From NCBI RefSeq assembly GCF_003334315.1, contig NZ_QOWR01000038.1: a stretch of DNA of 45,313 nt. The stretch is one strand, 5' to 3'. This DNA is from Escherichia coli (GTDB lineage Bacteria > Pseudomonadota > Gammaproteobacteria > Enterobacterales > Enterobacteriaceae). This document shows positions 43,101 through 45,313 of this stretch, piece by piece; within the stretch, counting starts at the first letter, position 1, and every line of letters begins with the position of its first letter. Made by a program: the position numbers.

Positions 43101-45313
43101 GTCCATTTATTAGCGCCACCAACCAAACATCTTCAGGCGAATGAATTAATAAAAAAATAGCGGGCACTGCAAGAATTTTTGAGGTTATGCTTGAAATAGC
43201 TACTTTAGCCATTTCTTCCTTACCTTGAAATAACCAGACTGGAAATAGCATATTTCCTACCACTGCTGAAAAGGCAATGATTAAAACATATTGATATTCA
43301 CCAGTAAATACATGGTCAGCGATAGTCCAACATCCGGAGAAAATAAAAGCACACACAATCAAAATTAACTTGCATGCCATAACATTCCAATACGTTTTGC
43401 TTACAAGTTCAACATCGTCTCGAATAATTGATATTTTTTTTGTTATAGAAAGATTAAAGCCAAAGTCAACTATCAGAATTGAATACTGTATTATTGCAAG
43501 GGTATATCCATAGATTCCGTAACTGTATGGCCCCAGCACCTTTACAAGGTAGGGTAAAGTTAACAATGGTATTAGGTATCCAACCCCCTGAATACTTAAT
43601 AGCGAAAATATGTTTATTAGTACTTTCTTATTCATCCACTGACTCATTTATTCACGCTACCGCCCCTGGCTCAACAGCTACCAGTGCACTGCACAAAATT
43701 CAGTATGTCGTGGACCAGCCCCCACAAACCTTCACGTTTGCATCGAATCTCGCCCACCAATTTAGCCCACTATTTTGGGCGCAATCCCTGTGTAAGACAA
43801 GGAGAAATCCGGCATTTTTTATCAAAAAACACCGCGCAATCACTAATTTTAGTTGTTGTTTTTAAAAGCAAAAACGGCAGCTGCTGTGAAATGAGAGTTC
43901 CTCAACCACAATCATCTGCCGTTCTGTTACTCACCAACATTCCGTGTTGTTGCGTAGTGTCTTATTCTGAAAGCAGTTTCTCAATCCCTTTCCGGAACTT
44001 CGCCCCTTCTTTCAGGTTGCGCAGCCCATACTGGACAAACGCCTGCATGTAACCCATTTTCTTACCGCAGTCGTAGCTGTCGCCGCTCATCAGCATCGCG
44101 TCAACGGACTGTTTCTTCGCCAGCTCGGCGATAGCATCCGTCAACTGAATACGTCCCCAGGCACCCGGCGCGGTTTTTTCCAGTTCGGCCCAGATGTCGG
44201 CGGAAAGCACATAGCGCCCTACTGCCATCAGGTCGGAATCCAGCGTTTGCGGTTGGTCTGGTTTTTCGATGAACTCAACGATACGGCTCACTTTACCTTC
44301 TACGGTCAGCGGCTCTTTAGTCTGAATAACCGAGTACTCAGAAAGATCGCCAGGCATACGTTTCGCCAGCACCTGGCTGCGGCCTGTTTCGTTATAACGT
44401 GCCACCATCGCAGCGAGGTTATAACGCAGTGGGTCAGCGGATGCGCCATCGAGAATGATATCAGGCAGAACAACCACAAACGGGTTATCGCCAACGATCG
44501 GACGCGCGCACAGAATGGAGTGGCCCAGGCCCAGCGGCTGCGCCTGTCGCACGTTCATGATGGTTACGCCCGGCGGGCAAATGGACTGAACTTCCGCCAG
44601 CAGCTGACGCTTAACGCGTTGCTCCAGCAGAGCTTCCAGTTCATAGGAGGTGTCGAAGTGGTTTTCCACGGCATTTTTGGAGGAGTGGGTGACCAGGACG
44701 ATTTCTTTGATCCCTGCAGCAACAACTTCGTCGACGATGTATTGGATCATCGGCTTGTCAACGATCGGTAGCATCTCTTTAGGAATGGCCTTGGTGGCAG
44801 GGAGCATATGCATGCCCAGCCCGGCTACCGGAATGACTGCTTTCAAATTAACCATTATCGGGTAATGACTCCAACTTATTGATAGTGTTTTATGTTCAGA
44901 TAATGCCCGATGACTTTGTCATGCAGCTCCACCGATTTTGAGAACGACAGCGACTTCCGTCCCAGCCGTGCCAGGTGCTGCCTCAGATTCAGGTTATGCC
45001 GCTCAATTCGCTGCGTATATCGCTTGCTGATTACGTGCAGCTTTCCCTTCAGGCGGGATTCATACAGCGGCCAGCCATCCGTCATCCATATCACCACGTC
45101 AAAGGGTGACAGCAGGCTCATAAGACGCCCCAGCGTCGCCATAGTGCGTTCACCGAATACGTGCGCAACAACCGTCTTCCGGAGACTGTCATACGCGTAA
45201 AACAGCCAGCGCTGGCGCGATTTAGCCCCGACATAGCCCCACTGTTCGTCCATTTCCGCGCAGACGATGACGTCACTGCCCGGCTGTATGCGCGAGGTTA
45301 CCGACTGCGGCCT

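Follow-up and report, generated by a model that had tools for sequence, protein, structure and literature searches.

The minus strand of a 45,313-bp stretch of Escherichia coli DNA (the window, i.e., the whole of the stretch analysed) is the reading direction of an O-antigen operon whose first gene, wzx, encodes the O-unit flippase and is preceded by a JUMPstart element with its ops (operon polarity suppressor) sequence and, further upstream, by galF; unless otherwise indicated, features lie on this strand, and coordinates are positions in the window. The JUMPstart element is 39 nucleotides (nt) long (43653..43691) and is recognized by Rfam cmscan (43691..43653) as RF01707; the match covers the full model (positions 1-38 of 38) and, with 60.5 bits (E=1.3e-11), exceeds the gathering score of 35. 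Its stem-loop, at 43666..43684, consists of CTGGT, a 9-nt loop and GCCAG, and is found both in the structure line of cmscan and in the single-sequence fold; in the cmscan alignment the CUGGU/GCCAG stem has 5 bp, all canonical. The 3' part of the same alignment is the ops 12-mer GGCGGTAGCGTG (43653..43664), which matches exactly the consensus GGCGGTAGnnTG (12 nt, non-template/coding strand) and occurs as a single exact copy in the window, on the same strand as wzx...manB, upstream of the first open reading frame (ORF) and directly before the operon; about 0.005 exact matches would be expected by chance on both strands of the window, according to our own arithmetic. The element is canonical and intact, and it is quite probable that it acts as the JUMPstart/ops leader of a wzx-first O-antigen operon, an estimate that jointly includes translation from the second of two in-frame ATG codons, control by RfaH as deduced from the family, and a spacing inherited from related clusters. 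The novelty of the element is low, being a known element in a known position whose sequence is already in public records.

Downstream of the element the minus strand reads ...CAGTGCACTGGTAGCTGTTGAGCCAGGGGCGGTAGCGTG AATAA ATG AGT CAG TGG ATG AAT AAG AAA GTA CTA... In particular, the 5 nt AATAA (43652-43648) lie between ops and the first ATG (ATG1, 43647-43645) of a 423-codon ORF, while a second ATG (ATG2, 43635-43633), in frame, is located 12 nt past ATG1 and 17 nt after ops. The true start of wzx is most likely, almost certainly, ATG2 (43635), as indicated by the comparison of homologous sequences; in this preferred model, based on the Prokaryotic Genome Annotation Pipeline (PGAP) and on homologues, wzx (MOP/PST family) occupies 42376..43635 and encodes 419 amino acids (aa). 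The 17-nt leader AATAAATGAGTCAGTGG (43636..43652), from ops to the probable wzx start, thus holds ATG1 and a weak GAG resembling a Shine-Dalgarno (SD) sequence. On the same comparative grounds ATG1 (43645..43647), with which some GenBank annotations open the 423-aa form, is probably not where translation mainly begins but a triplet that happens to fall in frame within a short leader, and the 5-nt gap is largely an artefact of choosing the longest ORF. The sequence-only reading of this DNA had described a 39-bp JUMPstart with ops, which the Rfam score and the exact ops bear out, and had inferred RfaH dependence, which seems reasonable given the family, since the element is real; it had given the gap before wzx as 6 bp in its title, off by one in a trivial way, and correctly as the 5 nt AATAA in its text, and, of the two alternatives it offered, a translation start at the second Met is the one favoured by homologue starts, PGAP and the leaders of relatives.

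The evidence on the start codon comes from a search of the 423-aa ORF against a large protein collection, which returned 586 homologues at E<=1e-10, and from a start-column alignment of the full ORF and the listed homologues of at least 395 aa (n=118). The start falls exactly at the Met5 column in 53 of the 118, with 21 more one residue earlier, and an MSQW-like N-terminal extension is present in none of the 118 aligned homologues. The motif M-[N/D]-[K/R]-x-[ILV]-x-x-N is kept in Buttiauxella, Scandinavium, Citrobacter, Tolumonas, Aeromonas, Shewanella and many metagenomic sequences, and the 100%-identical database representative is a protein of 419 aa carrying PF01943 and PF13440. The PGAP model on a 99.9%-identical plasmid copy is likewise WP_024258976.1 (1260 bp, 419 aa), and the 419-aa form is found on 61 contigs versus 4 for the exact 423-aa form; the latter is annotated in GenBank as RCQ26872.1 and HAH2847620.1, and EDX34301.1 of Shigella dysenteriae 1012 is another 423-aa member of the same 90% cluster. 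The leaders of Citrobacter sedlakii (...ATGAGTAAAAA followed by ATGAATAAGAAA) and of E. coli O28ac/O42 (...ATGAGAGAGCT followed by ATGAAGAAA) both contain an upstream ATG 11 nt from the real start and out of frame with it, which argues that the upstream ATG belongs to the leader and is not coding. Public records are therefore split between 423 and 419 aa and the comparative data back the 419-aa model, a correction that is relevant to wzx alleles used for in-silico serotyping and to expression constructs.

The ops sequence is read by RfaH as non-template DNA and is the site of RfaH loading and of the polymerase pause (PMC5995543); first genes controlled by RfaH have been described without SD elements, the refolded KOW domain of RfaH has been proposed to recruit 30S via S10, and SD-less reporters depend on RfaH (PMC5995543, PMC7819879). 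Because ops acts as non-template DNA, its RNA copy can sit inside the ribosome footprint; the statement of the sequence-only reading that no room is left for a ribosome-binding site was therefore a false constraint, and the locus illustrates that a start codon can nearly touch ops without conflict. A canonical SD (GGAGG-like, 5-9 nt upstream, with clear pairing) is found at neither ATG2 nor ATG1. At ATG2 the anti-SD duplex has -3.9 kcal/mol, with GAG at a 7-nt spacing, and equally weak values (-2.2 to -4.8 kcal/mol) are obtained for the first gene in each of five further clusters with compact leaders; most internal genes of the operon show about -4 to -7 kcal/mol, with weaker values for gmd, gmm and manB at their longest-ORF starts (+0.6 to -2.7 kcal/mol). 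A weak SD beside ops appears, by analogy, to be what the RfaH literature leads one to expect. In the mechanism deduced from the family, RNA polymerase would pause at ops, and RfaH would bind the exposed non-template strand and stay with the polymerase, suppressing Rho- and H-NS-dependent polarity over the low-GC 11-kb operon; translation of Wzx would begin at ATG2, 17 nt after ops, with the weak GAG 7 nt upstream and possibly with the RfaH-S10 recruitment of ribosomes proposed for such genes. A dependence of distal-gene expression on RfaH and ops has support in the literature on other O-antigen clusters.

The upstream gene galF (43962..44855) is complete, encodes 297 aa, matches E. coli galF and is part of a mobile module; its stop codon lies 270 nt from JUMPstart (43962 to 43691), as previously noted from the sequence. 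A hairpin followed by a U-run (43864..43924) is predicted after this stop and is a candidate intrinsic terminator of galF: the 91 nt of 43855-43945 fold with -31.4 kcal/mol, forming the stem GAACGGCAG...CUGCCGUU followed by UUUUUGCUUUU. A simple terminator scan did not report this hairpin, whose loop is too long for its rule. On the other side of the gene, the terminal inverted repeat of IS1 (GGTAATGACTCC..., window 44853-44875) has its start about 7 nt ahead of the galF ATG, so that the promoter and ribosome-binding region of galF have been lost; the only SD-like GGAG upstream of galF is inside the IS1 repeat. The terminator-like hairpin after galF and the cut-off by IS1 upstream favour an independent promoter between about 43700 and 43860, and transcription would start, as in other members of the family, in the approximately 160 nt between the galF hairpin and JUMPstart. 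In the wzx-first O-antigen operon of E. coli CFT073, RfaH loading at ops was detected by chromatin immunoprecipitation (ChIP), and sigma-70 ChIP and a transcription start site from RNA-seq were placed upstream of ops (PMC9765446); a promoter in the galF-ops spacer is plausible. A weak and speculative sigma-70 candidate, TTGTCT-17-CAAAAT (43772..43800), with 8/12 matches, emerges only from a relaxed scan and falls in a block conserved with an approximately 80%-identical leader.

Some observations weigh against the interpretation given so far. The default scan finds no sigma-70 promoter in the spacer, and the rfaH gene is not within the window. The pairing at ATG2 is near the median of the internal AUGs of the cluster (-2.75 kcal/mol; mean -3.18), and the anti-SD duplex at ATG1 is nominally stronger (-8.1 kcal/mol), with a poor spacing of about 11-15 nt. 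Moreover, the starts of the homologues are predictions of gene callers only; yet a Met column conserved across genera is hard to explain otherwise.

ATG1 (43647) could instead be a real or co-used start, producing a 423-aa Wzx with the MSQW extension, an alternative that is considered unlikely. It is in frame with wzx with no stop between, the nominally stronger duplex is formed with the 20 nt upstream of it, 423 aa are indeed annotated in the GenBank records mentioned above, and the 4 extra residues precede the first predicted membrane helix and are probably harmless. Initiation would rely on the G-rich ops RNA as a distant SD surrogate, or on delivery of 30S by RfaH and S10 to the first AUG emerging after the ops pause; recruitment of ribosomes by RfaH with scanning to a downstream initiation codon is a published speculation (PMC7819879). 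However, the pairing at ATG1 uses the G-run in and just before ops and is beyond the usual optimum distance, the extension is absent from the aligned homologues, and in C. sedlakii and O28ac the corresponding triplet does not share the frame of the gene. Nor are ATG triplets enriched right after ops: among non-redundant JUMPstart leaders of different species (n=97), 14 have an ATG at +1..+10, versus 15.4 +/- 3.6 expected from shuffles. The copies of the module show no variation at ATG1, the leader including both ATGs being identical in 12 other copies.

The same count (p = 0.70) led to the rejection of a conserved ATG or mini-ORF after ops as a landing pad for ribosomes; among these leaders, ATG is outside the twelve commonest trinucleotides at +1..+10, and later 10-nt bins are similar or higher. 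The idea had been prompted by the leaders of C. sedlakii, O28ac and Buttiauxella, and the apparent pattern reflected a listing ordered by how near the first ATG lies. In these three leaders and in that of CP66-6, a very small ORF, either start-stop or 4 codons long, precedes the gene, and its stop shares bases with the true ATG (ATGA or TAATG). A special RNA structure hiding or exposing the start codon was also dropped, since shuffled sequences fold as well as the 111-nt leader (z = +0.65).

Returning to the start at ATG2, the resulting 17-nt distance from ops can be compared with other clusters. In those with the same synteny the distance from ops to ATG is 10 nt in Buttiauxella agrestis, 21 nt in C. 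sedlakii and 22 nt in Scandinavium manionii; in E. coli it is 17 nt in O28ac/O42 and 18 nt both in strain 2017.06.04CC (wzx-first) and in strain CP66-6, against 80 nt in O11 (wzx-first), 84 nt in an rfbB-first cluster and 128-129 nt in galE-first clusters. The comparison within E. coli covers about 10 cluster types, the JUMPstart megablast query having matched 411 genomes with one lineage dominant. A crude cross-species survey of 85 JUMPstart elements, one genome per species, used as end point the ATG that opens the first ORF of >=150 aa; the distances have a median of 178 nt and a 10th percentile of about 35 nt, and three of the 85 do not exceed 20 nt. The 17-nt leader is thus in the short tail overall and yet, as the compared sequences suggest, is a recurrent, inherited layout and no peculiarity of this locus. 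It follows that the sequence-only reading overstated the case in calling the element unusually close to the gene, given the 17-18 nt of three other E. coli cluster types and the 10-22 nt of the closest wzx relatives, and that there is no support for a compaction of the leader peculiar to this cluster, since relatives from other genera have a short leader too.

Up to about 43643 the galF-ops spacer shares 98.8% identity with its counterpart in other E. coli serogroups; past this point the sequences diverge and the GC content is lower, about 32% instead of about 45%. The serotype-specific DNA thus has its boundary essentially at the end of JUMPstart. JUMPstart has long been viewed as the upstream recombination boundary of O-antigen clusters, and the observed boundary fits this view.

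A very short, SD-poor leader might also be a selected adaptation, in which a start 10-22 nt from the RfaH site allows RfaH and S10 to load the first ribosome as the AUG emerges, with coupling from the first codon; this explanation is improbable, about to the same degree as the use of ATG1. Compact leaders occur in at least 7 cluster types and four genera, all of the 6 compact first-gene starts scored out of 7 are weak (-2.2 to -4.8 kcal/mol), and the RfaH targets without SD and the RfaH-dependent SD-less reporters cited above agree with it (PMC5995543, PMC7819879). On the other hand, most JUMPstart operons have long leaders, as seen in the survey median and in the E. coli examples of 80 to 129 nt, several compact leaders are mutually homologous and hence non-independent, leader length and SD strength are uncorrelated in the survey (Spearman 0.145, p 0.19), and a neutral account, in which serotype-specific DNA has been joined by recombination immediately past the conserved JUMPstart, fits equally well. 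The idea that compact leaders have weaker SDs was dropped on the basis of the same correlation and of the comparison of leaders of <=30 with those of >30 nt (Mann-Whitney p 0.75), both obtained with a crude start-codon heuristic. A wider conjecture, somewhat less probable still, is that leaders that are both compact (10-22 nt) and SD-poor may constitute a functional class of their own, where RfaH recruited at ops loads the first ribosome via S10 on the first AUG, here perhaps also on ATG1 with dual 423- and 419-aa products; the mobile cassette, with a promoter-JUMPstart-AUG unit of its own, would then be a portable expression module dependent on the RfaH of the host. Natural leaders of 10-22 nt would be convenient minimal substrates for studying the way in which RfaH links transcription with the initial round of translation.

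The preferred interpretation, i.e., an inherited JUMPstart/ops leader with wzx starting at ATG2, has also to be placed in the mobile context of the cluster, which may be more notable than the spacing, considering the distribution of the cassette among several genera. The first part of the window (1-30903) is E. coli chromosome (glyS, xyl, malS, yiaK-S/lyx, yiaU), approximately 100% identical to many commensal strains; the chromosomal homology stops at about 30903, and the module corresponds to 30904-45313. The cassette galF-JUMPstart-wzx...manB is therefore away from the galF-gnd locus, in the xyl-malS-yia region, between ISAs1 and IS1. One boundary is an ISAs1-family transposase gene on the plus strand (31076..32215; NCBIfam NF033564, 398 bits), which adjoins the chromosomal yiaU; the other is an IS1 fragment at the contig end (44862..45313; NCBIfam transpos_IS1), the plasmid match ending at about 44863. 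The window is one whole draft contig ending inside IS1, and its chromosomal linkage depends on the assembly across the 1.3-kb ISAs1. In the chromosomal part, the small RNA ES036 (CssrF) of Rfam matches at 18898-18940 with 46.1 bits versus a gathering score of 37.6.

No complete RefSeq E. coli chromosome with this wzx was found, and the only full match is the plasmid p3575-NDM-5. Copies of the cassette with 99.7-100% identity are carried by plasmids of E. coli, one of them with NDM-5, and by plasmids of Citrobacter portucalensis; the cassette is also present on a plasmid-like contig of S. dysenteriae 1012 and, within a block flanked by IS26, on a record of chromosome size (4.98 Mb) attributed to Klebsiella; the galF-ops spacer is kept whole even where IS26 truncates galF. 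In two plasmid copies (L138 and L142), the family 2 glycosyltransferase (GT2), Stealth and EpsG genes are called as fragments (e.g., 155, 119 and 169 aa), due either to decay or to assembly frameshifts. The leader would travel with the cassette bounded by insertion sequences (IS), providing its own RfaH-responsive control region to any enterobacterial host; the presence of such an O-antigen cassette on plasmids, including one with NDM-5, among E. coli, Citrobacter, Klebsiella and Shigella bears on serotype switching and typing errors. That JUMPstart is here a hitch-hiking relic, the cassette being silent or expressed independently of RfaH from an IS-derived or foreign promoter, is very improbable: the module is indeed off its native locus between IS1 and ISAs1, with IS1 abutting galF, no strong promoter detected in the spacer and the fragmented genes of the two plasmid copies, but all cluster ORFs are intact in the window, the spacer has no substitution in the compared copies, even those with IS26-truncated galF (a weak point, as the copies are 99.7-100% identical throughout), and the plasmid-borne rfb cluster of S. 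dysenteriae prov. BEDP 02-5104, a possible analogue, is reported to be expressed (PMC8795385).

Downstream of wzx, the rest of the operon (32308..42383) encodes GT2, a Stealth-family protein, an EpsG-like protein (probable wzy), GT4 (glycosyltransferase family 4), gmd, fcl, gmm, manC, a further GT2 and manB, as assigned from the ORFs, the PGAP names on the 99.9%-identical plasmid copy and NCBIfam. The Stealth-family (CR1/CR2) protein is located at 40645-41637, alongside the GDP-fucose genes gmd, fcl, gmm, manC and manB; from this combination the O unit may be expected, like that of E. coli O173, to contain fucose together with a hexose-1-phosphate linkage. Wzx belongs to the Polysacc_synt family PF01943, and its homologues include the flippases of the O173, O132 and O34 families; in NCBIfam it has a weak MOP flippase match, the generic MOP and O-glycosylation flippase models are far below their cut-offs, and none of the serogroup-specific 'Oxx family O-antigen flippase' models matches it. 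The closest named E. coli Wzx type is that of O173, with 60% identity; assignment to a known E. coli O group was abandoned, given the lack of a serogroup-specific NCBIfam match and of a complete RefSeq E. coli chromosome with this wzx.

Among known systems, the rfb leaders of E. coli O7, K-12 and CFT073 O6 have the same 39-nt element with an exact ops in the same place after galF, and CFT073 is also wzx-first; unlike these rfb clusters, the present copy is off the galF-gnd locus. The O28ac/O42 strains JML285 and NCTC9699 and strain CP66-6 have a near-identical galF-ops spacer, an annotated first ATG 17-18 nt after ops, an upstream ATGAG or GTGAG and, as in the present leader, only weak SD-like purines. 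The first gene of this group encodes a cytidylyltransferase, in contrast to wzx here, and the ATG preceding it is in another frame, where it begins an ORF of 4 codons with a stop that shares bases with the true ATG.

The Wzx proteins of B. agrestis, C. sedlakii, S. manionii and E. coli O173 are 60-66% identical to the present one. In the first three, the order is the same (galF, about 300 bp, wzx, GT2, Stealth, EpsG), with JUMPstart 10-22 nt before the homologous ATG; these relatives are chromosomal, beside wcaM in Buttiauxella and Scandinavium and beside an epimerase gene in C. sedlakii, and their leader sequences differ from the present one. In E. coli O173 an ISAs1/H-repeat-like element of about 1.5 kb (L006 positions 946-2500) is inserted between ops and wzx, and gmd, instead of Stealth, follows wzx-GT2. 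RfaH loaded at ops in O173 would have to carry transcription through the IS before the first O-antigen gene.

Complete O-antigen clusters located off galF-gnd on mobile DNA, as here, are known in Shigella, namely on pINV of S. sonnei, in S. dysenteriae prov. BEDP 02-5104 and in a genomic island of S. dysenteriae 16. The plasmid rfb of S. dysenteriae prov. BEDP 02-5104 is reported to have been acquired from E. coli or Citrobacter, to be expressed and to override the chromosomal O antigen (PMC8795385). Annotations of S. dysenteriae include members of the present Wzx cluster (>=90% identical), among them that of strain 1012, whose contig also has plasmid genes; in contrast to the plasmid-borne or relocated rfb of Shigella, the present module is joined via ISAs1 to chromosomal DNA, on the yiaU side, on a draft contig.

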